Origin: Candidatus Humimicrobiia bacterium
Lineage (GTDB): Bacteria; Actinomycetota; Humimicrobiia; JAHJRV01
Assembly: GCA_049647085.1 (NCBI GenBank)
Contig: JBARXA010000016.1
Coordinates: 310,593 to 374,592, forward strand
Direction of reading: 5' to 3'
DNA: 64,000 nt
Shown here: positions 6,388 through 43,561 of the stretch, in pieces
Layout: the number at the start of each line of letters is the position of its first letter
Position numbering within the stretch: the first letter of the stretch is position 1
Made by a program: the position numbers and the translations under genes
The notes under the pieces: model-generated
Seen by the model: the letters and a program-made list of their open reading frames with translations, nothing else
Databases searched by the model: none
Told to the model about the DNA's origin: nothing

Positions 6388-8382
6388 TTAATCATCTTTA
6401 TGACATACTTTACTTTTTGTAGATCTGTTTTTTAGTTCTAAGTCAATTTCTTTTAGGAATTTCTCAATTGGGATTGGTCCTAAGTCTAATTCTGATCTAC
6501 ATCTTACCGCCACACAATTTGTGCTAACCTCTTTATCTCCAATAACCAACATATATGGAATTTTCGTAACCTGTGCATCTCTAATTTTTTTGCTAACAGT
6601 TTCCATCCTGTCATCTAAATCAACTCTTACACCTATTTTTTGTAAATAATCCATTACTTTTAAAGAAAAGTTTTTATGTTCATCAGTAATTGGAATTAAT
6701 ATAACTTGAACAGGTGCAAGCCAGACTGGAAAAGCTCCCTTATAGTGTTCAACTAATATACCAAAAAATCTCTCAATGCTTCCTAATATAGTTCGATGAA
6801 TCATAACTGGGCGATGTTTTGCGTTATCCTCTCCAGTATAATGTAGATCAAAAGCTTCAGGCATGGCAAAATCAAGCTGAATAGTTCCACACTGCCAGGA
6901 TCTTCCTAATTTATCAAATATGTGAAAATCTATCTTTGGACCATAGAACGCACCTTCACCAGGATTTATTGTATATTCAACACCTTTATGGTCTAATGCA
7001 TCCTTTAGTGCTGATTCTGCTCTTTCCCATATATCCAAAGAACCCATATAATCATCTGGGCGAGTTGAAAGCTCTATTTTATATTCCTTAAATCCAAATT
7101 TATCATAAATATAAATTACAAAATCTATTGTCTCTATTAATTGCTGTTCAATTTGAGAAGGTAAACAGAAAATGTGAGCATCATCCTGAGTAAAACCTCT
7201 TACTCTAAACAGACCGTGAAGAACTCCTGACAATTCATATCTATGAACGATCCCCAACTCAGCCCATTTTAAAGGCATATCTTTGTATGAACGGGGTTTA
7301 GTTCTGTAAATTAATACACCTCCTGGACAATTCATTGGCTTTACAGCAAATTCTCTACCACTTTTCTCTAAAAAATACATAAGTTCTTTGTAATGATCCC
7401 AGTGACCAGACATCTGCCAAAGATTTTTATCTAAAAGTATTGGAGTTCCTACTTGCTCATATCCCCTTTTTAAAAGTTCTTCTTTCAGGAAATCTAATAT
7501 ACTGTTTATAATAATCATTCCTTTGGGATGAAAAAATGGAAAACCGGGTCCTTCTTTATGAAAACTGTATAAATCAAGTTCTTTACCTAATTTTCTATGG
7601 TCTATCTTTTTTGCTTCCTCTATTTTTTGTAAATGTTTTTCCAATTCTTCTTGAGTAGTAAATGCAGTTCCATATATTCTCTGAAGCATAGGATTCCTTT
7701 CGTCACCTCTCCAATACGCTCCAGCTATACTTAACAGCTTAAAAACCTTTACCTTTCCCGTTGATGGTAGATGTGGTCCCCTACAGAGGTCTATAAAATC
7801 ACCCTGTTCATATAAACTTACAATATCTTCCTTAATATCATCTATTAAATGCTGTTTATAAGTTTCACTGGAAAAAATTTTTTTTGCTTCTTCCTTGTTG
7901 ACTTCTTTTCTTATTATTGAGATATCTTTTTTCACAATCTCCTCCATTCTTTTTTCAATTTTTTCTAAATCTTCAGGTATAAAAGGTTTTTGAGGATCAA
8001 AATCATAGTAGAAACCATTTTTTATTGTTGGACCTATAGCTATTTTAACTCCAGGAAAAAGTTCATATACTGCATTCGCCATAACATGAGCTGTAGTATG
8101 TCTTAAAATGTTTAATCCATCCTCATCTTTATATGTAACTGGTTTTAAGACTGCATTTTCTGTTATTATGTGAGATAAATCCAATAATTTATCATTTATC
8201 CTTATAGCTACAACTTCATCGATGTTTGGTATATCAAATGACTCTAAAACCTCAATTGCACCCACATTCTTATGAAATTTTTTAACATTGTCTGGAGAAA
8301 TTTTTATTTCTATTAACTCATCATTTTTACATTTATCTGAATTATTGTTTGCTTTCATCTTCTTATATCCCCTCATAACCAA
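6388..8382 (-). CDS. thrS: threonine--tRNA ligase
   Basis: 664 aa with TGS, editing and class II core domains. The track start at 8382 is a TTG; the ATG at 8356-8358 preceded by AGGGGA is the more likely start. Confidence 0.93.
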   Translation of the reverse strand: MVMRGYKKMKANNNSDKCKNDELIEIKISPDNVKKFHKNVGAIEVLESFDIPNIDEVVAIRINDKLLDLSHIITENAVLKPVTYKDEDGLNILRHTTAHVMANAVYELFPGVKIAIGPTIKNGFYYDFDPQKPFIPEDLEKIEKRMEEIVKKDISIIRKEVNKEEAKKIFSSETYKQHLIDDIKEDIVSLYEQGDFIDLCRGPHLPSTGKVKVFKLLSIAGAYWRGDERNPMLQRIYGTAFTTQEELEKHLQKIEEAKKIDHRKLGKELDLYSFHKEGPGFPFFHPKGMIIINSILDFLKEELLKRGYEQVGTPILLDKNLWQMSGHWDHYKELMYFLEKSGREFAVKPMNCPGGVLIYRTKPRSYKDMPLKWAELGIVHRYELSGVLHGLFRVRGFTQDDAHIFCLPSQIEQQLIETIDFVIYIYDKFGFKEYKIELSTRPDDYMGSLDIWERAESALKDALDHKGVEYTINPGEGAFYGPKIDFHIFDKLGRSWQCGTIQLDFAMPEAFDLHYTGEDNAKHRPVMIHRTILGSIERFFGILVEHYKGAFPVWLAPVQVILIPITDEHKNFSLKVMDYLQKIGVRVDLDDRMETVSKKIRDAQVTKIPYMLVIGDKEVSTNCVAVRCRSELDLGPIPIEKFLKEIDLELKNRSTKSKVCHKDD

Positions 8383-8818
8383 TATTTAAATATTATTTAT
8401 TTGAACTATTTAAGAGATGTGTTTGCAACTCTTAATCTTTTTAAAAATATTCGTACATTGAAAACTAAAAATGATTAACAAGTTTTACTTTTTGTTTTAT
8501 TTAGAAGTTTGTTTATATGTTTTGTTTATAAATAATACCAAATTAGATGAATTATAAACAAGTTAAATTAACACTTTGTTTATTGTTCTTTATTTTTTCA
8601 ACCTAGCCTTAGCTTCACTAAGAGTAAGTTTTATCTTATCCCCGTTAAGAGGAAGGAAAGGAAATTTAAAATCAATAATTCACCAAAAGAAGGTGAAAAT
8701 TTTAATTAACAATCTATTATAATATACTCGGATTTTTTTATATTATAATGTATTAAGTTATTACTAAAAAAATTATTAAATACTAATTAACTAGATTAAA
8801 AAATATTGTGAAACTAAA

Positions 8819-9964
8819 TTGGAAAATAATTATTATGTTTTAGGTATAGATGAGGCAGGATATGGACCAGATATTGGTCCACTTGTTGTAACATCTTCAC
8901 TTTTTAGACTTAGTGAAAAATATCATTCAGAGAAATTTTGGGAGACTCTTTCTGAAATAGTCTCAAAAAAAACAAAAGAATTTCCAGAAAAAGTAATAGT
9001 TTCAGATAGTAAAGATATATTTAAAAATCATCCAAAAAATTATTTAATAGGTGAAACTACTACTTTGTGTTCTTACTGTCTCTTATATCCTGTGCCACTT
9101 AATTTTCAAGAATTCCTACAAAATATATTCTTAGATAACTTAGATTTATTTCAAAAAAGATGCAAAACTTTTAGCAAATACACATATAGAATGTGTTGGG
9201 GTAATAATGATTTTTTTTCTGAAGATCCTTTAAATTCTAAAAATTTAAATCCAAAACCCTATATTAATGATTTATTCCCAAAACTAAAAAAAGTTATAAA
9301 AAGTTCAGGAATTGATTTAATAGATATAAAAAGTATAGTTTTATGTCCACATTTATATAATAAATCAATTACTAAAAAAAGGAAGCTTTTTTTAAATTAC
9401 TTACAATTTGAGAGATTAATAGAAAATGCTTTAAAAAGGATTTTGATAAAAAATATTTCAGTTAAAGATAAAGAAGAGACAGAAAAGTTAGAAAAAAAAT
9501 ATAAAAAAGAAACTATAAATTTTAAAAAGAATGAGCAAAAGAATAATTTAAATTCAATTTTTGTAATTGCTGATAAGCTTGGATCAAAAAAATATTATAT
9601 TAATTATCTTAAAAGTGGATTGCTTGGAAATTTCAAAATAAAAATTTTGGAACAAAACAGAAATATATCTTCTTATGAGCTATCAAATAGTTTGGCAGTA
9701 AGAATATCATTTATAAAGGAAGGTGACAAAACCCACTTCCCCATTGCTTTATCTTCTGTTTTTTCAAAATACATTCGAGAGAGGTTTATTAAAAATATAA
9801 ATGAATTCTTTGCAACAAAAATTCAAAATTTAAAACCAACAAAGGGGTATGCATATAAAATAGAAAAATTTATTGAAGTTACAAATGATGTAAGAAAAAA
9901 ATATGATATTGCTACAAATTGTTTTTTAAGAAAAAGGGATAGTCTCTTGCGCTTATTTGATTAA
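8819..9964 (+). CDS. RNase HII-like protein with a large internal Lys/Asn-rich insertion
   Basis: N-terminal VLGIDEAGYGP and VSDSKDIF match RNase HII catalytic motifs; IFVIADKLGSK and GDKTHFPIALSSVFSK match the later motifs. About 180 aa of low-complexity sequence separates them. TTG start in the ORF track, no clear RBS. Confidence 0.45.
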   Translation: MENNYYVLGIDEAGYGPDIGPLVVTSSLFRLSEKYHSEKFWETLSEIVSKKTKEFPEKVIVSDSKDIFKNHPKNYLIGETTTLCSYCLLYPVPLNFQEFLQNIFLDNLDLFQKRCKTFSKYTYRMCWGNNDFFSEDPLNSKNLNPKPYINDLFPKLKKVIKSSGIDLIDIKSIVLCPHLYNKSITKKRKLFLNYLQFERLIENALKRILIKNISVKDKEETEKLEKKYKKETINFKKNEQKNNLNSIFVIADKLGSKKYYINYLKSGLLGNFKIKILEQNRNISSYELSNSLAVRISFIKEGDKTHFPIALSSVFSKYIRERFIKNINEFFATKIQNLKPTKGYAYKIEKFIEVTNDVRKKYDIATNCFLRKRDSLLRLFD

Positions 9965-10001
9965 TTAGATTCTTCCACTCCACTTAGATTGACAATCTGA
10001 T

Positions 10002-19625: not shown

Positions 19626-20741
19626 TTATTCTAAAACATCATCTATTGGTGTATATGCAAGTCCATGGGCATCAGCTACTGGTTTATTTGTTACTTTTCC
19701 TTTACAAACATTTAATCCTTTTTTCAATACATGATCTTCTTTTAATGCTTTCTGCCATCCTTTATTTGCAATCTGTAGTGCATATGATAAAGTTTCATTT
19801 GTTAGTGCAAATGTTGAAGTTCTTGAGAAGGCAGCTGGAATATTTGTAACACAATAATGAACAACTCCCTCCTCAATATAGATTGGATCAGAATGTGAGG
19901 TTGGTCTTGCAGTCTCAACGCTTCCACCCTGATCAATATCCACACATACTATAACAGATCCTGGTTTCATAGATTTTACCATTTGCTTTGTTACTACTTT
20001 TGGAGTTTTTGCTCCAACTATATATATACAAGCGATCAATATATCGGCATCTTTTACAGCTTGTGTAATGTTAAATAAATTTGATTTTAATGTCGAAACA
20101 TTTTCCGGCATTATTTCTTCTAAATAGCGTAATTTTCTTGTAATTTTATCTAAAATAGTAACCTTTGCACCTAAACCAGCAGCAACTTTTGCAGCATTAC
20201 GACCTACCATACCACCACCTAATATAACAATATGTGCTGGTTCAACTCCAGATACACCACTAGGCAAAATTCCTCTTCCACCTTGTGCCTTACTTAAATA
20301 GAAAGCTCCAATAAATGATGCCATTCTTCCTGAAACTTCACTCATAGGAGTTAAAAGTGGAGTTTCCCCATCATCAGTCTCTATGGTCTCATAAGCAATA
20401 CAAATCGCTTTTCTTTCCATCATAACTTTAGTAAGAGCCTCACCTGAAGCAAAATGAAAATATGTAAAAACTATTTGGTTTTCTTTAATCAATTCAAATT
20501 CTTGAGGAAGAGGCTCCTTTATTTTCATAATCATATCTGCTTTGTCAAAAACCTCTTTAGCAGTATCTAATATTTCAGCTCCTACTTCTTTATATTCATC
20601 ATCACTAATACCGCTTCCTATACCAGCACTTTTTTGAATAAATACTTTGTGCCCAGCATTAATTAGCTCAGTTGTACCAGCTGGTGTCAACGCTACTCTA
20701 TATTCATTATCTTTAATTTCTTTAGGAACACCTATGATCAT
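19626..20741 (-). CDS. ald: alanine dehydrogenase
   Basis: 371 aa; MIIGVPKEIKDNEYRVALTPAG N-terminus and NAD-binding GGGMVG motif. Confidence 0.88.
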   Translation of the reverse strand: MIIGVPKEIKDNEYRVALTPAGTTELINAGHKVFIQKSAGIGSGISDDEYKEVGAEILDTAKEVFDKADMIMKIKEPLPQEFELIKENQIVFTYFHFASGEALTKVMMERKAICIAYETIETDDGETPLLTPMSEVSGRMASFIGAFYLSKAQGGRGILPSGVSGVEPAHIVILGGGMVGRNAAKVAAGLGAKVTILDKITRKLRYLEEIMPENVSTLKSNLFNITQAVKDADILIACIYIVGAKTPKVVTKQMVKSMKPGSVIVCVDIDQGGSVETARPTSHSDPIYIEEGVVHYCVTNIPAAFSRTSTFALTNETLSYALQIANKGWQKALKEDHVLKKGLNVCKGKVTNKPVADAHGLAYTPIDDVLE

Positions 20742-21040
20742 TATTTAACCTGCCTTTCTAATTAATTATTATAATTTTAATAATTATAAATCTAAAATAT
20801 TTCACCTCCCATCTTGAATTGTTTATTGAACTAATTCATAATTTTCAAAAATCTAGTTTAAAATAAATTTCAGTTAATCAATTACTTATATCATATAAAT
20901 AAAATATGTAACACCTCCAACGACTAAAGCTGTTGGGTTTCTTTCTAATTTATTCCTAAATTTAAAAATTTAATTTTAAAAAGCTGAATGTTAAAAGAAA
21001 CACTTAGTTCTTTTTGGACTCTTCTTAATTCTTTTTGTAA

Positions 21041-21259
21041 TTATTGTTCGGTAACTTCCCGCTTAACATCAAAAGATATTTGAACTTTTACTCTATATTC
21101 AATAATTTTTCCCTCTTCAACCTTTGCCCAGGAATTTATCACATCTACTCTGTCAATACCCCTGATTGTATGTGATGCATCTGTAATTGCATTTCTCGCA
21201 GCATCACTCCAACTTCTAAAAGAGGAGCCTTCAAGTGTAATAAATTTTTTTACTGCCAT
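21041..21259 (-). CDS. dodecin-family flavin-binding protein
   Basis: MAVKKFITLEGSS...AITDASHTIRGIDRVDVINSWAKVEEGKIIEYRVKVQISF has the dodecin pattern. Start placed at the ATG 6 nt after AAGGAGGT; the track start at 21277 lies within the RBS. Confidence 0.6.
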   Translation of the reverse strand: MAVKKFITLEGSSFRSWSDAARNAITDASHTIRGIDRVDVINSWAKVEEGKIIEYRVKVQISFDVKREVTEQ

Positions 21260-21464
21260 TTTCATACCTCCTTGCATATTAAAATGATTAAGTTATTTAA
21301 AGATATTTTTACATAATTATTGATTCTATTTAAATATAATTATTATTAAATATTTTAAAAAAAGCAATTTTTATTAATTGAAAAAAGAAAAAATTTGAAT
21401 CAGTAATGTTACTACTATATTTTAAAACTAAAATTATTTATGATATCTAAAAAATATTTAGTAA

Positions 21465-21673
21465 GAGATTGCACAGTTTATTCCTTCCCCTTTCCTTCAT
21501 TCCGTTCAAGTACAGACTTTACACTCGAGCTTCAATTCCCCTCCCTTTATGGGAGGGGGTAGGGGGAGGGTTTGATGGAGATTGCCACGCCACCTTCAGT
21601 GGCTCGCAATGACAACCGGGATCTTGTTCGCAATGACAGTCAGGAACTTGCTCCGAACAGGCTGTGCAATCTC
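21465..21673. repeat. MITE-like element with 12-bp perfect terminal inverted repeats (GAGATTGCACAG / CTGTGCAATCTC)
   Basis: The terminal motif recurs at 26773 and in variant form at 19503; the interior contains the GC-rich hairpin/G4 element and GCAATGAC units. Confidence 0.55.
21533..21570 (-). repeat. GC-rich 38-nt hairpin/G4-motif repeat, copy 1 (reverse orientation)
   Basis: Exact reverse complement of the 38-mer at 62598-62635; the plus strand reads GGGAGGGGGTAGGGGGAGGG. Confidence 0.8.
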
Positions 21674-21695
21674 ATTAAAAATAGATTTTAGACTA

Positions 21696-21731
21696 TGTCA
21701 TTGCGAGGAGCGTTAGCGACATGGCAATCTC
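21696..21731 (+). repeat. unit of the GTCATTGCGAG...GCAATCTC repeat family
   Basis: GTCATTGCGAGGAGCGTTAGCGACATGGCAATCTC. Confidence 0.6.
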
Positions 21732-21788
21732 ATTTAAATTTATTATATTTAACATTTTGTTTTAGTAACAACAAAATTAAAACTTCTA

Positions 21789-21817
21789 TTGACCTTTTAA
21801 TATAATTCTTATAGAAT
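21789..21817 (+). promoter_or_regulatory. candidate sigma-70-type promoter (TTGACC, 17-nt spacer, TAGAAT) about 300 nt upstream of the APC permease
   Basis: Hexamer match by eye only. Confidence 0.3.
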
Positions 21818-22112
21818 TACAATATAAATTTAATACAATTAATATTAAAATCATTATTAATTTTATATTAATAGTTCTATTTTAAGCAACAAATTCAAAT
21901 ACATATTCGTCAAAAACCAAAATATGAACTCAAATATTGAGCAGGAATCTACTAAAGTAAGATTATCAAAATCAATATAATACTCAATAATAATATAATT
22001 GATAATCTACTAAAGAAAGGAGGCATATAGAGAATTAATTTTTTATTTGAAAGATTATTCTTTCAAATCACCTCTTGTATAAATATTTTATTAATGTTAG
22101 GAGGTTATTTTT

Positions 22113-23807
22113 ATGCAAGAAGAAAAAAAGTTATTTACTAGAAAAGCTACAGGATTAGTACGAGAAATAGGAGTTGGAACTGCAGTTCTTATAGCTATTG
22201 CTAATGTTGTTGGGTTGGGATGGCAAAAAAGAGTATTTCAGGCAACAGGTTGGGCTCCGGTTGGTGAGAGTAAATTTCTTCTTGGAATTCATCCAGTTGT
22301 AATGGCGTTCGCTATTACCGGAATAATTATTTTGGTATCATTGTACTGTTTTTCAATGTTATCAGCTGCTATGCCAAGATCGGGTGGTGGATACATATTC
22401 ATTTCCAGAATTCTAAATCCAGGCCTTGGGTTTGTAGCTACATGGTTACAGTTCTTTGCTGTTGCTGTTTCTTATGGATTAATAGCTGTTGCAACAATGG
22501 AAGCTGTCTGGCTTTTTGCAGGATTAGCTGGTGTTACACTTCCTGGATGGCTTACTAGTCCTATTGGATTATTCTTGTGGGGTGTATTAGTACTTGTAAT
22601 CTTTAGTGGTATCGCATTCTATGGAATAAAATTGACTGGAAAATTACTTCAATGGCTATTCTGGATTCCAGCATTTATATTAGTGATTGTATATATACTA
22701 TTCATTATTGCAACTCCAGGAACTATGGAGACAGGTGTTCAATCACTATTTGGTGCTAATGCTGCTGAGTATACACAAGCAGCTATTGATCAGGGAATGG
22801 CAGATACAGCAGCAGGAAATACCTACTGGGGAGCAGTTGGAACTGCAATGTTAGCAGCTTATTGGGCTTATATTGGTTATGCTGCTGCTTCATTTGTTGC
22901 TGGTGAGGTAAAAGAAGCACACAAGAGTTTACCAAAAGCTATGTTTACATCTGGATTAGTTATTATTGGTATCTATATGACTATTTCAACACTAATGGCA
23001 AGAGCTGCAATGATGGCTGGAAAAGTTGGAGATTTCTCGTTGATGTCAGCTATAGGATATCTTAATTTCGGAGGAGGAAGCTTTGCAGATGCTGGCTTAA
23101 ACTCAATTGGTGGATGGATGCCAGTTATTGGTGCAATATCAGCTGCAGGACGTGGATTTGGAGCAGGATTTATGTGGATACTGATATTATTTGCAGCTTT
23201 ATGGGTTGCTAATGACATTCCACCCTTCATTTTGACATCTTCAAGAATGATATTTGCTATGGCTTTTGATAGAGTTTTACCTGATAAATTAGCAAAAGTT
23301 AATGAGAAATGGCATTCACCAGTAAACGCAATTATTTTTGTGTCACTTGTTGCAATATTTGGTTGTGCTGCTGAAGCTGATCTTTTTGGAAAGAGCGGTA
23401 TATACTTAGGTGAATTCATACACTCAATCATAAATCCTGGTGGAGCTATTGCAGCGACTGACATATGGGATGCAATATTCTTCTTAGTTGTATGTATTGC
23501 AGCATTTTATTTCCCAATAAAAAAGCCTGATATATTTGAGAGGTCACCATTTAGAGCTAGTAAAACAGTTACTCAAATAATTGCAGCCCTGGCAATAATA
23601 GGAAATCTTATTGCTTTATGGGTATTCGCTACTAATGAACATGCGTGGAATCTTTTGAAAATAGACAGTTTGAGAGCTGCAATGCCATTCTTGTTCACAA
23701 TTTTCCTTATCGCTTTAGGGTTAGGAATCTACTTGTACTACAGTAATAAAGCCAAGTCAACAGGTGTTGAGCTAACTACAATATTTACGGAAATTCCTCC
23801 AGATTAA
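22113..23807 (+). CDS. APC-superfamily amino acid permease
   Basis: 564 aa, about 12 TM segments, Gly/Ala-rich helices typical of amino acid/polyamine/organocation transporters; TAGGAGGT RBS. Confidence 0.8.
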   Translation: MQEEKKLFTRKATGLVREIGVGTAVLIAIANVVGLGWQKRVFQATGWAPVGESKFLLGIHPVVMAFAITGIIILVSLYCFSMLSAAMPRSGGGYIFISRILNPGLGFVATWLQFFAVAVSYGLIAVATMEAVWLFAGLAGVTLPGWLTSPIGLFLWGVLVLVIFSGIAFYGIKLTGKLLQWLFWIPAFILVIVYILFIIATPGTMETGVQSLFGANAAEYTQAAIDQGMADTAAGNTYWGAVGTAMLAAYWAYIGYAAASFVAGEVKEAHKSLPKAMFTSGLVIIGIYMTISTLMARAAMMAGKVGDFSLMSAIGYLNFGGGSFADAGLNSIGGWMPVIGAISAAGRGFGAGFMWILILFAALWVANDIPPFILTSSRMIFAMAFDRVLPDKLAKVNEKWHSPVNAIIFVSLVAIFGCAAEADLFGKSGIYLGEFIHSIINPGGAIAATDIWDAIFFLVVCIAAFYFPIKKPDIFERSPFRASKTVTQIIAALAIIGNLIALWVFATNEHAWNLLKIDSLRAAMPFLFTIFLIALGLGIYLYYSNKAKSTGVELTTIFTEIPPD

Positions 23808-23846
23808 AATTCTGGTTGTTACAAACATACTATTGAAATTCGATAT

Positions 23847-23885
23847 ATCAGCTCCTGTTTAAAGCAGGAGCTGATTATCATTTAA
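23847..23885 (+). terminator. probable terminator of the permease gene
   Basis: 11-bp perfect stem ATCAGCTCCTG / CAGGAGCTGAT with a 7-nt loop; the following T-run is weak. Confidence 0.45.
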
Positions 23886-24024
23886 ATATTATAATAAATA
23901 GATAAATAAGAATAAAATAACATATTTAATATATAAAGTGAGGTCTTGTTAAACAGTTTTGCCTCGTTATATTCAGGACAGGATCTAAATAAAGCTAAGG
24001 AACTACAAAAAAACTGGAAAATAT

Positions 24025-24519
24025 ATGAAAAGAGTAATTGATTTAAGAAACTTTATAGATAATATAGAAAATCAATTAATTAAAGGAAGAGGAAAGTGGA
24101 TTGCGGAGTTCAATGAATCATTTATAAACTATTCACTTGATAATTTTGTTTTTCCATTAGTTGTTAGAGGACAAACAAGAAGTAAAGGTTTTTTACTCTC
24201 GAGATTTTTTGCTTACTTTGCCATGCCAAACTATTTGGTGTCATGCTTTGTATATCCCTCAGAAATAAATTCATATCTAAAAAAAGAGAAACTAAAAATA
24301 TTACTTATAGAGATATCTAAAATGATGAAGAAGAACAATGTAAAATGGTCCTGGCTTATCATCCCAAAAGAGGGTGAATTTAATCAAAGAATAATAAAGT
24401 GGGTTGAAAAAAATGACCTTTCTAATATTGGTATTGCTTTAGTAAACTTAAATACTAAAAATATTTTAACTAATAATTCAGTTATAGGAAGAAAAATAAA
24501 AACTATTTTAAAATTCTAA
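24025..24519 (+). CDS. hypothetical protein
   Basis: 164-aa ORF; its stop overlaps the start of the next gene (ATGA). Confidence 0.4.
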   Translation: MKRVIDLRNFIDNIENQLIKGRGKWIAEFNESFINYSLDNFVFPLVVRGQTRSKGFLLSRFFAYFAMPNYLVSCFVYPSEINSYLKKEKLKILLIEISKMMKKNNVKWSWLIIPKEGEFNQRIIKWVEKNDLSNIGIALVNLNTKNILTNNSVIGRKIKTILKF

Positions 24520-24950
24520 TGAAGAAAATATCAAAAATAAATTTTGGAGACTTAGGTAAATCATTCTCTATCTTTTTTATTCTTATAGTGACATTACGGA
24601 TTATTACAAATTTCTTATTCACAAAGATTATAATCGTAGAGTGGTGGATTTTAACAATAGAGCTAATTTTAGCTGCTATTGTATCCTATTTGTATTATAG
24701 ACTTAAATATCACCCCACCTTTAGTTATGACAAAGAAAGTTTAATTTTAGAAATTGGTAAGGAAAAAATATCCTCAAAATGGAAAGATTTTAAATTTATC
24801 TCTTTGTATTATAGCGGTTTAGGGAAAACTTCTTTAAGATTATATATAAACGATATCTATAAAGATGATTATATTGAAATCCCAGTCTCTGATTTAGGAC
24901 TTTCTCCAAAAGAATTTAGAGAAGAAGTTTCGAAATTAATTTCAATATAA
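24519..24950 (+). CDS. hypothetical membrane protein (2 predicted TM helices plus soluble C-terminal domain)
   Basis: 143 aa; hydrophobic stretches at about residues 15-35 and 40-60; translationally coupled to the upstream ORF. Confidence 0.4.
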   Translation: MKKISKINFGDLGKSFSIFFILIVTLRIITNFLFTKIIIVEWWILTIELILAAIVSYLYYRLKYHPTFSYDKESLILEIGKEKISSKWKDFKFISLYYSGLGKTSLRLYINDIYKDDYIEIPVSDLGLSPKEFREEVSKLISI

Positions 24951-24951
24951 A

Positions 24952-25899
24952 TTAACCTTCTACTCTCTGGAGTCTAAGTATTTTATCACCTTCAATTTCT
25001 ACCAAATAACCTTTAAATATACCCTCTCCATATTCACTTCCTGGATTGAAACATACAGTCCTACCAATTTTTATATATCCTGGGCTTTCATGAATGTGTC
25101 CATGAAGTCCTACTAATGGTTGGTATTTTTCAATAATTTTTCTAACAGCATGACTTCCTACTGGTATCTCCCGAGGTTTACCACCTATAACTATTATATT
25201 TAAATCTTTATCTACCATTGGTGCATAATCAAGATAAGAATCATATGGTGGACAGTGGATGCAAAATACAGCAGTCTCTAAATTCTTAACTTTAGCTACT
25301 ACCTTCTCCAATTTCTCCTCCATCTCTTCCTCTGAGCATTCTCTTGGTGAATCAAAAGGAGTAGGATTTGTCCAACCAAAACAGAGAACTTCGTGCTCTC
25401 CATCTAAGTCAACCACCTCTTCCTCACCAAATGTAATTCTTGGATCTTTCTTAATTACTTCATCAATAGCAAACTTATCATCATTTCCAGGACTCATTAT
25501 AACCTTGCACTTATCAGGTACTCTATCCGATATTAATGTTAACCAATGTTCAACAATATCACATTCTAATTTTTCGAATAAATTTTCCCTGTATTCCTCA
25601 TTATTTCCTATTTTGACACTTTCCTCCGGAGTAGTTCTATACGGAAGATATGAAGCCATTCTTACTTTTTTTTCATATTCAGGTAATTCTTCTTCAGATA
25701 GAATATACTCTCTTCCTAAAAGATGTGAAGTATATTTCCCGTCCTCCCTTTTTATAATTGGAACCATTATTTTACCAGTCATATCTCCACTTAAAACAAG
25801 AGCATCCAAATCATAAATCTTTGCAGTATTCAGAAACTTTCTCCAGACTGTTTCTGAACCATGCAAATCTGTTGCGAACATAAATCTTGTTTTAGCCAT
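24952..25899 (-). CDS. metallophosphoesterase (calcineurin-like phosphoesterase)
   Basis: Motifs ATDLHGS, LSGDMTG, GNDD and GHIHES match the dimetal phosphoesterase signature. Confidence 0.75.
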   Translation of the reverse strand: MAKTRFMFATDLHGSETVWRKFLNTAKIYDLDALVLSGDMTGKIMVPIIKREDGKYTSHLLGREYILSEEELPEYEKKVRMASYLPYRTTPEESVKIGNNEEYRENLFEKLECDIVEHWLTLISDRVPDKCKVIMSPGNDDKFAIDEVIKKDPRITFGEEEVVDLDGEHEVLCFGWTNPTPFDSPRECSEEEMEEKLEKVVAKVKNLETAVFCIHCPPYDSYLDYAPMVDKDLNIIVIGGKPREIPVGSHAVRKIIEKYQPLVGLHGHIHESPGYIKIGRTVCFNPGSEYGEGIFKGYLVEIEGDKILRLQRVEG

Positions 25900-25901
25900 T
25901 T

Positions 25902-26669
25902 TTACCTCCCCACTTCTTCAACTTCTTTATACCATTTTTTCTTTATACCAACCTTAGACCTTATTTTCCATTTCAGGCTTTTAGGTTCACCTTCTATTCT
26001 TTCAAGTATTTTATCAATTCTATCTGCAACTATTTTTCCATTTTCATCCGTCAGAGATTCAAATTCACCAAGGAAATCTTTAACTTTTTTAAGGTTGGTC
26101 GTCACTGTATAATAATACCCCCAATCTTTTGATAAGAGCTTAGATATATAGTTCATGTTTACTGTTTCTTCTTCCTTATCTCCAACATCATGCTCGAGTA
26201 GCATTATAATAGTATCTTTGATATCCTTTGGATTTATCTCTACTATCTGCATCTTTTCTAATAATATATCAGTTAGAGTGATGGTAGGGTCATCCAATTC
26301 CAATCTATTTCTAAAATCAACCTTATGGCACATATCTAACTCATTAAAAAAGATATCTACTTGCCAACCTTTTTCATCACTCCAGTAGATTTGTCTTTTT
26401 TTACCATATAATGCAAAAAATCTTGGATTTATTGGTTCATAACCTAAGTCTTTAAAAAACTCTCTCATTCCTTCTCTAAACTTTCCATATGTCATTAAAT
26501 CTATATCAGTAAGTGGTCTCTTCATTTCATCATATAGATACCTATATTTTGGACTATGATTTTTTACTGCAATTGAACCCAATAATCTAAAAATTATCCC
26601 TTTTTCTTTGCCTTTTTCAATTATCTTAAATGCTTCTTCAACAAAAGCTTTGTCTCTTTCAGGATCCAT
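25902..26669 (-). CDS. hypothetical protein, possible nucleotidyltransferase fold
   Basis: LLGS...LTDIDL followed by QVDIFF resembles the GS/DxD/D pattern of Pol-beta-type nucleotidyltransferases, but the spacing is atypical. 2-nt gap to the downstream phosphoesterase. Confidence 0.35.
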   Translation of the reverse strand: MDPERDKAFVEEAFKIIEKGKEKGIIFRLLGSIAVKNHSPKYRYLYDEMKRPLTDIDLMTYGKFREGMREFFKDLGYEPINPRFFALYGKKRQIYWSDEKGWQVDIFFNELDMCHKVDFRNRLELDDPTITLTDILLEKMQIVEINPKDIKDTIIMLLEHDVGDKEEETVNMNYISKLLSKDWGYYYTVTTNLKKVKDFLGEFESLTDENGKIVADRIDKILERIEGEPKSLKWKIRSKVGIKKKWYKEVEEVGR

Positions 26670-26772
26670 AACCCCTCCTATTTTTATTAATTATATCAGT
26701 AAAATTTAAAGAATCAATATATTGCATTACCTTTTATCACAATTACAAAATGTTAAAAATAATAAATATAAA

Positions 26773-26913
26773 TGAGATTGCACAGCCTGTTGTGGGATAG
26801 ATTGCTTCGCTTACGCTCGCAATGACATACTAGAATCTCGCTCCTCGCAATGACACATTGTCAACATATATTTTTATCATTGCGAGCAAGCTCCTGGTTG
26901 TCATTCAGGAGAG
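26773..26913. repeat. cluster of GAGATTGCACAG / GCAATGAC / GTCATTGCGAG repeat units
   Basis: Starts with GAGATTGCACAGCCTGTT, identical to the terminal repeat of the element at 21465-21673, followed by at least three GCAATGAC/GTCATTGC units in both orientations. Abuts the 3' end of the aldolase gene. Confidence 0.6.
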
Positions 26914-27542
26914 CTTTCCTTTAATATCTTTTCTAAAGCTCTTACTTGCTTATCTGATAGAATTTTAGGTTCACCTACCTGAAGAGCTTTATGATAAATT
27001 TTTGCTGATTCTTCTACTAATATCGCAATTAAAACTGCATTCGATAATGAAGAGCCTATTGTTAAAACTCCATGACTTTCTAAAAGAACTGCTGATCTAT
27101 TAGAAAGTTTTTTGAGTGATTTTTTTGCCAATTCTATTGAACCAGGAAGTGCAAAATCCACAACGGGAATATCTCCACCTACTGAAAAGAAAGTCTCAAT
27201 ATGTATAAGAGGAATGCTCTTTTTAAGTACAGCAAAGCATGCGGCATATGGAGAATGCGTATGAGCAATTCCAAAGATATCCTCCCTATTTTTATAAATT
27301 TTTAAATGAATGGGAGTCTCATATGATGGTTTATTTTTACCTTCCACTTTATTTCCATTTATATCTAAAACTACAATGTCATCTGGATTTAAAAATTCCC
27401 TGAATACTCCATGTGGAGTAACAAAAATATATCCCGTTTCTTTATCCCTCAAACTAAAATTACCAGTTGTTGGGACAACTAATCCTAATTTTTCAGATTT
27501 TTGAGCCCAGAAAATAACTTCATTTTTTAAATCTTCATACAT
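26901..27542 (-). CDS. class II aldolase/adducin-family protein (fuculose-phosphate aldolase / ribulose-5-phosphate 4-epimerase-like)
   Basis: 213 aa with the HTHSPYA metal-binding motif. Confidence 0.75.
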   Translation of the reverse strand: MYEDLKNEVIFWAQKSEKLGLVVPTTGNFSLRDKETGYIFVTPHGVFREFLNPDDIVVLDINGNKVEGKNKPSYETPIHLKIYKNREDIFGIAHTHSPYAACFAVLKKSIPLIHIETFFSVGGDIPVVDFALPGSIELAKKSLKKLSNRSAVLLESHGVLTIGSSLSNAVLIAILVEESAKIYHKALQVGEPKILSDKQVRALEKILKESSPE

Positions 27543-27590
27543 TTTTCCCGGAATACCCTTTCTTTATTTAATAAAAATTTTTTTAATAAA

Positions 27591-27644
27591 GTAGGGCAAT
27601 CCTTTAGGGTTGCATTATCAAGCAAGACTAAAGTCTTACCCTAC
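27591..27644 (-). other. structured element: closing stem GTAGGG/CCCTAC enclosing two hairpins, followed by a U-tract on the minus strand
   Basis: Hairpins GCAAUCC-UUUA-GGGUUGC and AAGAC-UAAA-GUCUU inside a 6-bp closing stem, between tRNA-Leu and the aldolase start. Confidence 0.4.
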
Positions 27645-27704
27645 AAATAAATATATTCAGTCTTGTACTACATAATTAATAGTTAAAAAATCCACTTAAA
27701 AAAG

Positions 27705-27792
27705 TGGTGTCGGAGGGGGGACTTGAACCCCCACGAGCTACTCACTCACAAGGTCCTCAACCTTGAGCGTCTACCAATTCCGCCACTCCGAC
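27705..27792 (-). tRNA. tRNA-Leu (GAG)
   Basis: 88 nt with long variable arm; anticodon stem CAAGG/CCUUG, loop UUGAGGA; CCA encoded. Confidence 0.88.
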
Positions 27793-27827
27793 ACAAATTA
27801 ATTATATCAAAATAATTTTGTATTGAT

Positions 27828-29582
27828 TTATTTTTCAATCCAGACTGTGTAAAAATATGGACCTGTAAAAGGATTGGATTGATAACCTTTCACCCATGGT
27901 CTAATTAAAATATTTCTTGAGCCATAATATAATGGAACTATCGGGAACTCGCCTGGATACTTATCTTCATCACTTTTGTCACCAAAAGCAATTTTTGAAG
28001 CCTTTTTATATAATTCGACCTGTTTGTCCAAATCATCAAATATCACAGCATTTGTTACTAATTCATCAAATTCATCATTTTTCCACCCAGTATAATTGTT
28101 AGGTGATCTACTATGCAATTCTATAAATAACCAATTACTTACATGAGGATAATCAGGTATCTTTTCCATTAGATACATATCAATAACTATAGTACTTCCA
28201 TATATGTCATGGATTGTATCAAAATATGTTTCAGAATCCATTTCAATTAAATCAACTTCTAAATTTAAATTTTTAGACAACATACTCTTTATAGATTTAA
28301 CTAATATCTCATTCTCCCCTGACTCCTCATAAACAAATTTTAAAGGTCTATTCCCTTTATTATTTGAGCTTTCATCAGTTGGTTGAAGAGCTTCAACAAG
28401 AATTTTTTTTGCTTTTTCAACATCAAAATCAATTCCTATTGTTTCATCATGTCCTAAAACTTGAGATGGGATAAATTGATTTGCTACTATTTGATTTTTC
28501 CAAGATATATAATTTTTTAATTCATTCTTATTTATAGCTAATGCTATTGCTTTTCTAATTAGTGGATTATTACCTGGTTCATGTCTAGTATTAAAACCTA
28601 TGTAATAAGTTGAAATTCTTGGTTCAGTTAATAACTGACTTTTAATTAAAGGGGTAGAAATAATTTCCTCCAACTTATCGGATGGAATTCCAGATTGCCA
28701 TCCCCAAGTTCCATCTATCTTCCCCTCCTCATAAACAGATAATTCTGTATATTTATCCTTGCATAAAAATATATTGATAGTGTTAAGTTTTGGTGAACCT
28801 TCAAAATAATTAGGATTTGCTTTCAAAACAATCTTTTCATCATGCTCCCAATTTTTTAAAATAAAAGGACCATTTGTTACTAAATTCTTAATATTTGTCC
28901 AATTTTCCTTATATTTTTCAACTACAGATTCAGGAACTGGCTTTGTTATCCAGGTAGAGGTTATATAAGTAAAATAATTAACAGGACCTTTTAACTTGAT
29001 TTCTAATACATTATCACTTTTAGCCTCGATGCCAAGAGCATCTGAATCTAATTCGCCTTTATTAAATTCTTTAGCACCTTCTATATCAAAAAATAGGTAA
29101 GCATGAGGAGAGTTAATTTCTGGGGAAAGTGTTCTTTTCCATGAATAAACAAAATCATGTGCTGTAATATTATCACCATTAGTCCAATAAGCATCTTCTC
29201 TTATTGTAAATGTAATAATAGTTCCATCATCTGAAATTTCCCAATTTTCAGCAATACAGGGTGAAACAGACAAATCTGGCTCAAGCTTTGTAAGACCAAC
29301 AAAAATTTGATTAATTATATTAATAGAAGCTCTGCTATTAGCTAAATTTGGATCAATCGTTAAAGGTTCTTCGTTAAAACATAAATTTAGAATTTGCTCA
29401 GACTCAAGCTTTAATTCTTCACTTATTTTTGTAGATTCTAAAGGAATTTCTTTACCAGTTTTTGCTTCTTTAAGAAAATCTTTTCTAATTTTTTCTATTT
29501 GTGCACATCCAACAAAAGATAAAAAAGAAACAATTAAACATATTAAGATTGATATTTTAAAAATTTTATTTAATTTATTCAT
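27828..29582 (-). CDS. ABC transporter substrate-binding lipoprotein, family 5 (OppA/DppA-like)
   Basis: 584 aa; signal peptide with lipobox FVGC; family-5 SBP architecture. Confidence 0.8.
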   Translation of the reverse strand: MNKLNKIFKISILICLIVSFLSFVGCAQIEKIRKDFLKEAKTGKEIPLESTKISEELKLESEQILNLCFNEEPLTIDPNLANSRASINIINQIFVGLTKLEPDLSVSPCIAENWEISDDGTIITFTIREDAYWTNGDNITAHDFVYSWKRTLSPEINSPHAYLFFDIEGAKEFNKGELDSDALGIEAKSDNVLEIKLKGPVNYFTYITSTWITKPVPESVVEKYKENWTNIKNLVTNGPFILKNWEHDEKIVLKANPNYFEGSPKLNTINIFLCKDKYTELSVYEEGKIDGTWGWQSGIPSDKLEEIISTPLIKSQLLTEPRISTYYIGFNTRHEPGNNPLIRKAIALAINKNELKNYISWKNQIVANQFIPSQVLGHDETIGIDFDVEKAKKILVEALQPTDESSNNKGNRPLKFVYEESGENEILVKSIKSMLSKNLNLEVDLIEMDSETYFDTIHDIYGSTIVIDMYLMEKIPDYPHVSNWLFIELHSRSPNNYTGWKNDEFDELVTNAVIFDDLDKQVELYKKASKIAFGDKSDEDKYPGEFPIVPLYYGSRNILIRPWVKGYQSNPFTGPYFYTVWIEK

Positions 29583-37969: not shown

Positions 37970-38023
37970 AAATTTCCTTTATCCTTATAAAACTAATAAA
38001 TATTTTTATTTAATTTAATATTA

Positions 38024-38254
38024 TTACAGTATTATATTTAATAAAATTGTGGTAATAGCGAATATTATTGATGCAGCAACTGTTATCCTATTTAAATTCT
38101 TTTCGACAATACTTGAGCTAGTAGCTGGGCCTAAAATCTCACCAAATGTAGCTGACATTCCTCCACCCTTTCCAGCATGAAGAAGAATCAGAAGAATTAA
38201 AGCTAAACAAATTACAGAATGAATTATGATTATTACAGTTGACAAAGTAGTCAT
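38024..38254 (-). CDS. secG: preprotein translocase subunit SecG
   Basis: 76 aa, two TM helices flanking a Gly-rich loop (LLHAGKGGGMSATFG). Confidence 0.75.
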   Translation of the reverse strand: MTTLSTVIIIIHSVICLALILLILLHAGKGGGMSATFGEILGPATSSSIVEKNLNRITVAASIIFAITTILLNIIL

Positions 38255-38535
38255 TTTTTAGTAACTCCTTATTGATTATAAATTATTATTTTGACTTTAA
38301 AATAATCTAATTAAGTATTATAATTTTGATTTTAAAAACCTTCTCAACAAAAACATTTTACAATTGTAAACTATTTTTAAAAATTTTAAAATATAAAACA
38401 TTAAAAAAATTATTCAATAAAATATTCTCTGTATTAGATTTTTCAATCTTTTTATGTCATTCAGACACTGTCCTGGGTAAAATTAGTTTGATTTATTAAT
38501 TTTATAATAATACTCATTCTAAACAGAAATATTTT

Positions 38536-40200
38536 TTAATCAAGTTCTTTCAGTCTTTTATACGCAACAGTGCCACCATTACCTGCTTCATAAACTGTTT
38601 TGAAATTTTCCTTATATTTTTCAATTATCGGGTACACATACTTCATAAACCGTTCATTTGTTTTATCCTGTATTATAAAATCAGATTTATTCAAATACTT
38701 TTTTTGTTTTTGTTCATCATCACTATATGGAAATGATATCGTCTCTCTATTAGTTATAATATAAACTAAGAAATTACTCCTGCTAAGTATTGAACTGCCA
38801 TCATAAGAATTTTCCTTTAACCAATACATTGCATCATAGAAATTCTCCCATGATTTACCATATATAAATTTTTTATTATTTTTATAATCAAGACTCTTAT
38901 TTATTACTAAATATCCACCATAGATACTTCCAGTTAAAAATATAATAAAAGTTAGTATTAAAACTGTTGATGCAAATATTTTAATTATTTTTTTTGTTGA
39001 AATTTTTAGTATTATCTCTTTAAAAAACAAGACCCCACTTGAAAAAAGAATGATTAAAATAGGAATTACGCAAACCGTAAGTCTTTCTGATTGCCATGGC
39101 CACATATGAAGACCGATAAAATAAAGTATTAAATATATTGTATAAATATATTTCTTCTTTTTCAAGAAATAAATAATTCCTAAAATAACTAAGATTATAG
39201 AAAGTAAAATTGCAATAAAATATAAATCTTTAATTTTTAATATTTCAAAAAAATTTGAAATATTCCCTTTTAAAATATCTTTTAAGCCATTTGTCAGTTG
39301 CGAAAAAACTGCTTTAAAATAATAATCGAAATTTGATTTTGCTCTTTCAAAAAATTTTATAAAATCTATATTTCCTTCGGAATAGTCACTGAGATTGACC
39401 TTGAAAAACTCACTTACATAGCTAACTTTATTTGAAATCATTGCTCTTAAGTTCCACAAAATAACTGGTACTAATGTAAATACAAAATAAATTCCTGATC
39501 TAATTTTGTTCTCACTTAAAAAGATTTGTATAAATATTGCAAGGATGATGAAAATACCAATTGGTCTGATTAAAAATGTAAATATTGAAAAAAATATCAA
39601 TAAAATAAAATTAAGATTGAGATGCTTTTTTATTCTCTCAAATAAATTATTTTTATCCTCAGAATGTTTGTCATTGTCATCCTGAGCATAGCGAAGGATC
39701 TCAAAATTAAGATTTAACCTACTACTTTCATTCTCAGAATAATTACTCTTACTATTGTTTAAGTATTTAATATTACTTTCTTCGCTAATCTCTCTATAAT
39801 TTAAGTTATAAAAATATAAAGTGATAAGAAGAAAAAGATTATATACAGTCTCTGTCATTACTTTTGATGAGAAACTTAGAAGTTCAGGATGAGTTATAAA
39901 AAAAATTGATGCCAGCAATAAAGTTAATCTATCCAGATCCTTTTTTGCTACAAGATAGAAAAATAATACTGAAAGAATAAAACATGAAACTACAATTATT
40001 TTAGATACTATTAAAATATTTGATTCAATAAATTTAGAACCTAAAATAAAATAAAAAAATGATAATATAAGTGGAAAACCTGGATATGCCTTGTAATCAG
40101 GAGGATTTTCTGGATAATTTATTAATTTAAATCCAATTCCTTGAGAAATGGATTTTCCAAGTATCATATATCTTGCATTATCACCAAAACAAGATAACAC
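38536..40200 (-). CDS. glycosyltransferase family 39/83-like membrane protein (ArnT/PMT-like); 5' end uncertain
   Basis: Polytopic membrane protein with a DNARY-type motif near the N-terminus. A predicted TM helix lies in frame upstream of the track ATG with no ATG; contains an in-frame repeat-family insert. Confidence 0.55.
   Translation of the reverse strand: MLSCFGDNARYMILGKSISQGIGFKLINYPENPPDYKAYPGFPLILSFFYFILGSKFIESNILIVSKIIVVSCFILSVLFFYLVAKKDLDRLTLLLASIFFITHPELLSFSSKVMTETVYNLFLLITLYFYNLNYREISEESNIKYLNNSKSNYSENESSRLNLNFEILRYAQDDNDKHSEDKNNLFERIKKHLNLNFILLIFFSIFTFLIRPIGIFIILAIFIQIFLSENKIRSGIYFVFTLVPVILWNLRAMISNKVSYVSEFFKVNLSDYSEGNIDFIKFFERAKSNFDYYFKAVFSQLTNGLKDILKGNISNFFEILKIKDLYFIAILLSIILVILGIIYFLKKKKYIYTIYLILYFIGLHMWPWQSERLTVCVIPILIILFSSGVLFFKEIILKISTKKIIKIFASTVLILTFIIFLTGSIYGGYLVINKSLDYKNNKKFIYGKSWENFYDAMYWLKENSYDGSSILSRSNFLVYIITNRETISFPYSDDEQKQKKYLNKSDFIIQDKTNERFMKYVYPIIEKYKENFKTVYEAGNGGTVAYKRLKELD
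39670..39702. repeat. repeat-family unit inserted in-frame within the glycosyltransferase CDS
   Basis: GTCATTGTCATCCTGAGCATAGCGAAGGATCTC; 33 nt, encodes EILRYAQDDND in a low-complexity loop. Confidence 0.5.
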
Positions 40201-43485: not shown

Positions 43486-43520
43486 GAGATTGCTTCGTCG
43501 CTTACGCTCCTCGCAATGAC
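43486..43520 (-). repeat. 35-nt unit of the GTCATTGCGAG...GCAATCTC family (reverse orientation)
   Basis: Plus strand GAGATTGCTTCGTCGCTTACGCTCCTCGCAATGAC; between gap and whiA. Confidence 0.6.
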
Positions 43521-43561
43521 AAATAAATAACAGATATCATCTATAGGGTTTCTAATATTTT

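Follow-up and report, generated by a model that had tools for sequence, protein, structure and literature searches.

A permease, a calcineurin-like phosphoesterase and a nucleotidyltransferase-like protein encoded by a recurrent gene trio of Archaea and Bacteria

Within a 64,000-nucleotide stretch of a Candidatus Humimicrobiia bacterium genome (GenBank assembly GCA_049647085.1, contig JBARXA010000016.1, positions 310,593 to 374,592; the whole stretch is hereafter called the window), two adjacent minus-strand genes encode a nucleotidyltransferase-like (NT-like) protein and a calcineurin-like metallophosphoesterase (MPE). An initial annotation of the window described them as a pair separated by 2 nt, and the sequence bears out both open reading frames (ORFs), their strand and the gap between them. 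The adjacency of the two genes is far beyond chance and is seen again in hundreds of genomes of Archaea and Bacteria; as a description of the module, however, the pair was incomplete, as a permease gene and two small conserved ORFs had been missed, and the module is larger than first noted, with three core genes and five in the clade of the window. The permease, the MPE and the NT-like protein very probably form a single functional, permease-linked trio that is unrelated to defence. Our tentative reading, to which we give somewhat less than an even chance, is that this trio is a conserved, horizontally mobile cassette for nutrient uptake and processing, of which the NT-like protein and the MPE would be the enzymatic half. 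While the superfamilies are known, the combination is undescribed as far as our literature searches show.

The linkage of the three genes holds whichever enzyme is taken as the anchor. Around the NT-like gene we collected 80 non-redundant loci, 41 of which extend for at least 5 kb on both sides; by tblastn, an MPE orthologue lies within 5 kb of the NT-like gene in all 41 and within 3 kb in 36, and the permease lies within 5 kb in 36 of the 41, with ORF clustering recovering divergent permeases in several of the remaining loci. An unbiased clustering of neighbouring ORFs returned the NT-like protein (76 loci), the MPE (71 loci) and the APC-family permease (71 loci) as its dominant clusters. Starting from the MPE (80 metagenome loci, of which 17 have flanks of at least 5 kb on either side), the NT-like gene was found in 16 of 17 loci and the permease in 17 of 17, and three additional MPE-anchored contigs all carry an adjacent NT-like gene. 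Co-occurrence of the pair outside the genome of the window, which the initial annotation had proposed as a check, is thus observed from either side. Gene order varies: the window clade has NT>MPE>, Alphaproteobacteria have MPE>PERM>NT> and Bathyarchaeia have MPE<NT>PERM< (PERM, permease). Despite this reshuffling of order and orientation the three genes stay clustered. The pairwise identities of the NT-like protein and the MPE are also correlated across 68 loci (r = 0.86, Mantel p ~0.001).

A pattern scan with one genome per species found NT-like relatives in at least 488 genomes, all of them metagenome-assembled genomes (MAGs). The archaeal hosts are Bathyarchaeia, Thor-, Heimdall- and Promethearchaeota and 'Thermococci' MAGs, and the bacterial hosts are Chloroflexota, Planctomycetota, Alphaproteobacteria, Actinomycetota, Acidobacteriota and Methylomirabilota. 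Among 72,556 plasmids the module is absent but for one haloarchaeal megaplasmid. The megaplasmid of the cultured Halobellus limi CGMCC 1.10331, NZ_CP031312.1, carries a full trio at 386259-389795 beside genes for an Fe-alcohol dehydrogenase, an aldehyde dehydrogenase and an IclR regulator; its NT-like protein, WP_160113950.1, is 34% identical to that of the window and keeps 22 of 25 invariant residues, including the catalytic carboxylates, and its MPE, WP_103992469.1, is 44% identical and keeps 27 of 27. Several complete trios can occur in a single Bathyarchaeia genome (L020, L044 and L052 in one Bathyarchaeota MAG; L033 and L050 on one contig; also L088 and L089), which is what would be expected for substrate-diversified nutrient cassettes, and at several loci two NT-like paralogues flank one MPE. 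Two loci lack the NT-like gene. The megaplasmid of Thermomicrobium roseum DSM 5159 encodes a permease, an MPE and a tandem CN-hydrolase in that order with no NT-like gene nearby, and the metagenome locus L123 has the permease and MPE alone among genes of amino-acid metabolism. From these two cases, the MPE and permease look like the core of the module, with the NT-like protein as a very frequent third partner. We also considered an NT-like domain hidden in the 602-aa 'nitrilase-related' protein of T. roseum and rejected it, as this protein is a tandem CN_hydrolase with an hhalign probability of 0.3% against the NT profile. Elsewhere on the T. roseum megaplasmid, 2.4 kb downstream of the permease-MPE-CN_hydrolase genes (L174 12323-13058), lies a minimal-nucleotidyltransferase/HEPN pair of toxin-antitoxin type, which is not homologous to the NT-like family. 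Two bacterial loci have other features near the module, a group II intron (L062 12138-12913) and a 6S RNA gene (L014 16226-16409), both apparently incidental.

The initial annotation had suspected a Pol-beta-type nucleotidyltransferase fold from a GS...DID...QVDIF pattern, and this assignment proved sound. The hG[GS] motif (L29-L30-G31-S32) spans the junction of strand 28-30 with helix 31-38, the [DE]h[DE] carboxylates (D55-I-D57) lie at strand 56-60, and a third carboxylate, D105 of 'VDIFF', lies in strand 102-108, while structure comparison recovers the alpha/beta core. G31, D55, D57 and D105 are all invariant in an alignment of 40 diverse relatives, among which 32 columns are invariant in total, and archaeal and bacterial members share ~45-50% identity, with conservation along the whole length. 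The only sequence family detected is PF14907 (NTP_transf_5), which the window protein matches at 12.7 bits (E = 0.097) against a gathering score of 31.2, short of membership; 14 of the 40 relatives match it at E <= 0.01 (best 2e-7), and several homologues carry precomputed PF14907 matches. Sequence comparison places the NT-like protein as a divergent sister or outlier branch beside PF14907. The literature describes no function for PF14907, and the sole mention we found terms it uncharacterised. There were no NCBIfam, PADLOC, PHROG or PDB-sequence matches to the NT-like protein. A word-indexed search gave 780 matches, all labelled 'hypothetical', and an exhaustive profile search of 1.84 billion representatives gave 2,800 clusters at 50% identity, 872 of them with E <= 1e-30. 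Examined for Rosetta-stone fusions, this last set consisted almost solely of single-domain proteins of ~250-275 aa; two longer matches were both one-offs, one a helix-turn-helix read-through and the other carrying an unannotated N-terminal domain.

The structural neighbours of the NT-like protein include ANT(2'')-Ia, LnuA, MenT, TUTase and CCA-adding enzymes, and its fold is also common to cyclases and oligonucleotide synthases. Likeness to the small-molecule O-adenylyltransferases ANT(2'')-Ia (AadB) and LnuA lies in the fold, at 14-18% identity and with no common sequence family, and no Pfam or NCBIfam match assigns the NT-like protein to the ANT/Lnu enzymes. Compared with these, it has 60-90 additional residues, its spacer between GS and DxD is longer, and it ends in a basic C-terminal tail that is conserved. 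It never occurs in a resistance context; an MPE is always linked to it, and an APC permease usually is. The low identity and the lack of family membership count against the possibility that the module modifies xenobiotics or antibiotics, in which case an ANT/Lnu-like enzyme would inactivate a compound akin to an aminoglycoside or lincosamide, with the permease as an exporter. Such a role, which the initial annotation had considered equally possible, finds no support in the gene context; the module is spread over sediment archaea and many free-living lineages, is nearly absent from plasmids, and is tied to catabolic genes and to an MPE, an enzyme that known ANT resistance does not involve. We consider it highly improbable.

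A second group of fold neighbours, the MenT/AbiEii (DUF1814) toxins MenT1, MenT3 (TglT) and MenT4, raises the possibility of a toxin-antitoxin or anti-phage pair, in which the NT-like protein would be a toxin that modifies tRNA, with the MPE as an enzymatic antitoxin undoing that modification. Unlike those toxins, the NT-like protein has no cognate antitoxin gene, lies in a metabolic and transport context, is strongly conserved across domains and is not basic. Against PF08843 (DUF1814) the window protein gave no match and 1 of 40 relatives matched at E = 0.0025, short of membership, and no AbiEii match was found for the NT-like protein in addition to the lack of PADLOC matches. No small antitoxin, MenA/AbiEi-type antitoxin or COG5340-type regulator occurs in the window or in related loci, where the partner is the MPE. 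Defence models and a check for an adjacent effector likewise gave no CD-NTase/CBASS or other anti-phage system, and the MPE has a single weak generic match in PADLOC. No phage homologues were found, the flanks of the window module hold nothing pointing to defence or mobility, and the chromosomal context is syntenic and consists of housekeeping or nitrogen-catabolism genes, the latter strictly linked to the module together with the permease; the defence-island setting for which the initial annotation had advised scoring is thus not borne out. The very high conservation across domains is also unlike that of fast-evolving toxin-antitoxin and defence genes, and we regard this explanation as scarcely credible.

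The second enzyme is a calcineurin-like phosphoesterase, as the initial annotation had stated, with a PF00149 match (E = 6e-7, 30.5 bits) above the cutoff of 21.5. The DxH, GD, GN[HD][DE], H and GHxH motifs of the superfamily are all present, as D11-x-H13, G38-D39, G138-N139-D140-D141, H215 and H266-x-H268-x-H270-E271, and are invariant, metal ligands included, in an alignment of 27 diverse relatives (33-77% identity to the window protein). Two features set the MPE apart: GNDD in place of GNH[DE], and a cap formed by an alpha/beta insertion of ~80 residues (residues ~44-121). The closest structures are aq_1956 (PDB 2yvt) and TT1561 (1uf3) of the PF14582 (Metallophos_3) group, to which no function is assigned; these proteins are 17-19% identical to the MPE, have 228-257 aa and lack most of the cap. 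Since the match to PF14582 reaches 17.1 bits against a cutoff of 28.2, the relation to this group is structural and is not one of curated sequence membership. The nearest characterised structures are the nucleotide and diester phosphodiesterases MPPED2, Lmo2642, Rv0805/CpdA and GpdQ, and the MPE belongs to no sequence-level subfamily of these enzymes, differing from them in having GNDD where they have GNHD. Fold neighbours further include Mre11, Dbr1 and 2',3'-cyclic phosphodiesterases. Homologues of the MPE number at least 7,400.

The nucleic-acid enzymes among both sets of neighbours would be consistent with healing and tailing of RNA 3' ends, where the MPE would strip 2',3'-cyclic or 3'-phosphates and the NT-like protein would add nucleotides, by analogy with a CCA-adding enzyme and its HD domain; MenT, TUTase and CCA-adding enzymes would speak for the one activity, and Mre11, Dbr1 and 2',3'-cyclic phosphodiesterases for the other. 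This explanation leaves the strict permease linkage without a rationale. No RNA-binding domains were detected in the two proteins, which have no transmembrane segments and are acidic to neutral (pI 6.4 and 5.6), although charge is weak evidence for discriminating nucleic-acid from small-molecule substrates. We hold RNA-end repair to be very improbable. Structural neighbours could also point to a signal pair, in which the NT-like protein would synthesise a nucleotide second messenger to control the permease, and the MPE would degrade it: MPPED2, Lmo2642 and Rv0805 are cyclic-nucleotide phosphodiesterases, and the fold of the NT-like protein is shared with cyclases and oligonucleotide synthases. 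However, with several trios in one genome, a diffusible signal would lead to cross-talk; the MPE and permease are also retained where the NT-like gene is missing, and the lack of a PADLOC match counts here as well, so that we judge a signal pair to have a low probability. The wider proposal of the initial annotation, a signal synthesis/degradation or a nucleotidylation/removal pair, survives in weakened form, its two halves being harder to reconcile with the multi-copy trios and with the NT-less T. roseum and L123 loci.

The third member of the trio belongs to the APC superfamily, with Pfam matches to PF13520 (E = 1.6e-30) and PF00324 (E = 4.7e-19) and ~12 hydrophobic segments in its hydropathy profile. 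Its best NCBIfam match, TIGR00909, reaches 85 bits where the cutoff is 557, hence no equivalog can be assigned. The permeases of the module share an N-terminal F-x-R-K-A-[ST]-G-L-[VI]-R motif, P88-R-x-G-G-x-Y94, E265, R378, D386 and a cytoplasmic C-terminal tail, ...[FY]-x-E-[IV]-P, that is specific to them, a signature that marks them as one orthologous subfamily and not as generic APC genes. In the subclade of the window (Chloroflexota, Planctomycetota and some Bathyarchaeia), two small proteins, s164 and s143, are kept with the permease; neither has a Pfam, NCBIfam, PADLOC or PHROG match. Other archaeal loci have an unrelated membrane protein of ~226 aa, 'c12', in place of s164 and s143. 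That 'c12' might be a fused equivalent of s143 and s164 was considered and dropped, with zero profile support.

Across other lineages, the non-core neighbours of the trio are mostly amine and C-N-bond enzymes. The census comprises class-III aminotransferases, GS-like enzymes, alpha/beta hydrolases, DUF1989, BetI-type TetR regulators and amidohydrolases, together with creatininase, M20 peptidases, MttB, AllG-like proteins, CN-hydrolases and arginase-family enzymes. Bathyarchaeia loci combine choline-kinase/APH with MttB, and MttB also occurs alongside a corrinoid protein, an aminotransferase and an alcohol dehydrogenase. What looks like a single operon at L171 runs from an AsnC regulator through the permease, an arginase-family gene, the MPE, the NT-like gene and a PreA-like gene to a CN-hydrolase. 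It is on this nitrogen-catabolic, non-defence context, together with the folds, the invariant catalytic residues, the three-way linkage from either anchor and the co-divergence, that the nutrient-cassette reading is built; from these observations we infer that the substrate would be a small molecule, to which class of compounds it would belong, in which order the two reactions would run and which way the permease would transport.

The specific chemistry that we propose for the cassette is doubtful, and would run as follows. First, the permease would import a small nitrogenous molecule (an amine, an amino-alcohol or a compound resembling an amino acid) that possibly bears a phosphoester or gains one. 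Then, the cytosolic MPE, as a phosphodiesterase-type enzyme with GNDD, would cut a phosphoester or phosphodiester in the imported compound or in its nucleotidylated derivative. The NT-like protein, built like ANT(2'')-Ia and LnuA, would nucleotidylate the same substrate or a close derivative, for metabolic trapping or activation, and lineage-specific C-N-cleaving, transaminating or demethylating enzymes encoded nearby would recover nitrogen and carbon. In the subclade of the window, s164 and s143 would join the cassette as accessory proteins. Several observations weigh against the nutrient-cassette reading. Nucleotidylation followed by phosphodiester hydrolysis is energetically odd in catabolism, and the NT-like protein is strongly conserved though the downstream genes vary, which a common target such as the permease would fit at least as well. 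The T. roseum and L123 loci mean that the NT-like gene is not obligatory for the function of the MPE and permease. Searches of PDB chains with single sequences and with profiles gave no characterised homologue of the three proteins, and no recurrent domain fusions hint at a substrate. Finally, an Rfam riboswitch search of window positions 20700-27900 at E <= 1 found tRNA only, and Rfam searches of 31 bacterial loci (~434 kb) at gathering thresholds found nothing relevant.

The conservation of the NT-like protein is one of several observations that would also suit a regulatory role, which is the foremost rival of the nutrient-cassette reading but which we think unlikely. Here, the NT-like protein would act as a writer that nucleotidylylates (e.g., AMPylates or UMPylates) the permease, s164, s143 or 'c12', and the MPE as an eraser that reverses the modification, together gating uptake in a manner analogous to GlnD/GlnE. 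In that precedent from nitrogen metabolism, a Pol-beta-fold nucleotidyltransferase and a metal-dependent removing activity ultimately control a transporter or enzyme. A writer and eraser would agree with a trio that is self-contained while the downstream metabolic genes differ by lineage, with the unusual full-length conservation of the NT-like protein between Archaea and Bacteria, with the conserved cytoplasmic tail specific to the permease subfamily, and with the fact that each permease paralogue is accompanied by its own NT/MPE pair; the two NT-like paralogues per MPE at several loci would correspond to specific writers served by a generic eraser. On the other hand, no writer lies near the eraser and permease in T. 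roseum and L123, the permease tail contains no invariant Ser, Thr or Tyr, and we know of no MPE that acts as a protein de-nucleotidylase. If such a mechanism were true, the MPE would be the first metallophosphoesterase de-nucleotidylase. We consider it quite unlikely that the trio represents a previously unknown post-translational switch of nutrient uptake, common to Archaea (including Asgard archaea and Bathyarchaeia) and Bacteria.

Both enzyme families are large and yet are annotated solely as 'hypothetical' or 'metallophosphoesterase', and the literature searched for PF14907/NTP_transf_5, PF14582, aq_1956, TT1561 and the combination of genes describes no function. The hosts of the trio include abundant sediment lineages (Bathyarchaeia, Anaerolineae and Asgard archaea) whose nutrient sources are actively debated. 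Identification of the substrate would annotate thousands of genes together, and could reveal an unrecognised route for organic-nitrogen or organophosphate nutrients or a new form of transporter control. With a trio in the cultured Halobellus limi and a natural NT-less variant in T. roseum, the question is experimentally approachable.

At the window locus itself (Table 1), the TAA stop codon of the NT-like gene (25904-25902) is followed by two bases (25901-25900) and the ATG of the MPE gene (25899-25897), whose ribosome-binding site, GGGAGG, sits within the 3' end of the NT-like gene. This layout is predicted to be that of a translationally coupled two-gene operon. A ribosome-binding site, AGGAGGGG, stands ahead of the NT-like ATG, and further upstream lies an extended -10 promoter-like site that matches the consensus (26717..26690; TTGATT, 16 nt, TG-n-TATAAT); together, these two elements imply a bicistronic NT-MPE operon. 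In the consensus scan, promoter-like sites were not commoner than in shuffled controls. On the opposite strand, the start of s143 overlaps the stop of s164, and s143 ends 1 nt from the convergent MPE stop. The hairpin between the permease gene and s164 resembles a terminator or attenuator with a weak T tail, a putative function. Neighbours of the module encode alanine dehydrogenase, dodecin, a class II aldolase, peptide ABC transporters and SecG, and the window itself shows 95% identity and full synteny to 'Actinomycetes/Actinobacteria bacterium' MAGs.

Table 1. Positions of the module genes and associated features in the window (aa, amino acids)
Feature	Position	Strand	Size or location	Description or basis
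NT-like gene	26669..25902	-	255 aa	Pol-beta-superfamily nucleotidyltransferase fold, divergent branch near PF14907
MPE gene	25899..24952	-	315 aa	Calcineurin-like dinuclear-metal phosphoesterase
APC-superfamily permease gene	22113..23807	+	564 aa	Third conserved module member
s164	24025..24519	+	164 aa	Small soluble protein, predicted co-transcription with permease
s143	24519..24950	+	143 aa	Small membrane protein, ~2 N-terminal transmembrane helices (hydropathy)
Promoter-like site and AGGAGGGG ribosome-binding site	26672..26717	-	5' of NT-like gene	Consensus scan and sequence
Hairpin, 13-bp, GC-containing	23847..23875	+	Permease/s164 gap	Pattern match
tRNA-Leu(GAG)	27705-27792	-	Immediately upstream of the class II aldolase gene preceding the NT-like gene	

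The window has a strong strand bias: of its 46 ORFs that reach 150 aa, 42 are encoded on the minus strand. Of the four on the plus strand, two are nested inside larger minus-strand ORFs, which leaves the permease-s164-s143 operon and one gene at 8819-9964 as the real plus-strand exceptions. GC content is ~30% overall, with low-GC stretches at 8001-10000 (24.1%) and 38001-40000 (23.7%). The gap upstream of the permease gene (21278-22112) is unusually long (835 nt) and very AT-rich, and had zero Rfam family matches; it holds a G-rich hairpin, CCCCTCCC-TTTATG-GGAGGGGG (~21537-21560), and copies of a dispersed, imperfectly palindromic intergenic repeat of ~35 nt, GAGATTGC...GCAATGAC. Sites of this repeat in the window are 21603-21613, 21697-21733, 26800-26854, 26877-26887 and 43487-43521. 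Its core, GTCATTGCGAG, has five exact copies in the window against zero expected by chance, four of them in the upstream regions of the two convergent operons of the module and one beside unrelated genes. An operator common to both operons was considered and is unsupported; because this last copy, at 43.5 kb, lies by unrelated genes, GTCATTGCGAG looks like part of a dispersed intergenic repeat, probably an element of the REP (repetitive extragenic palindromic) or MITE (miniature inverted-repeat transposable element) type.

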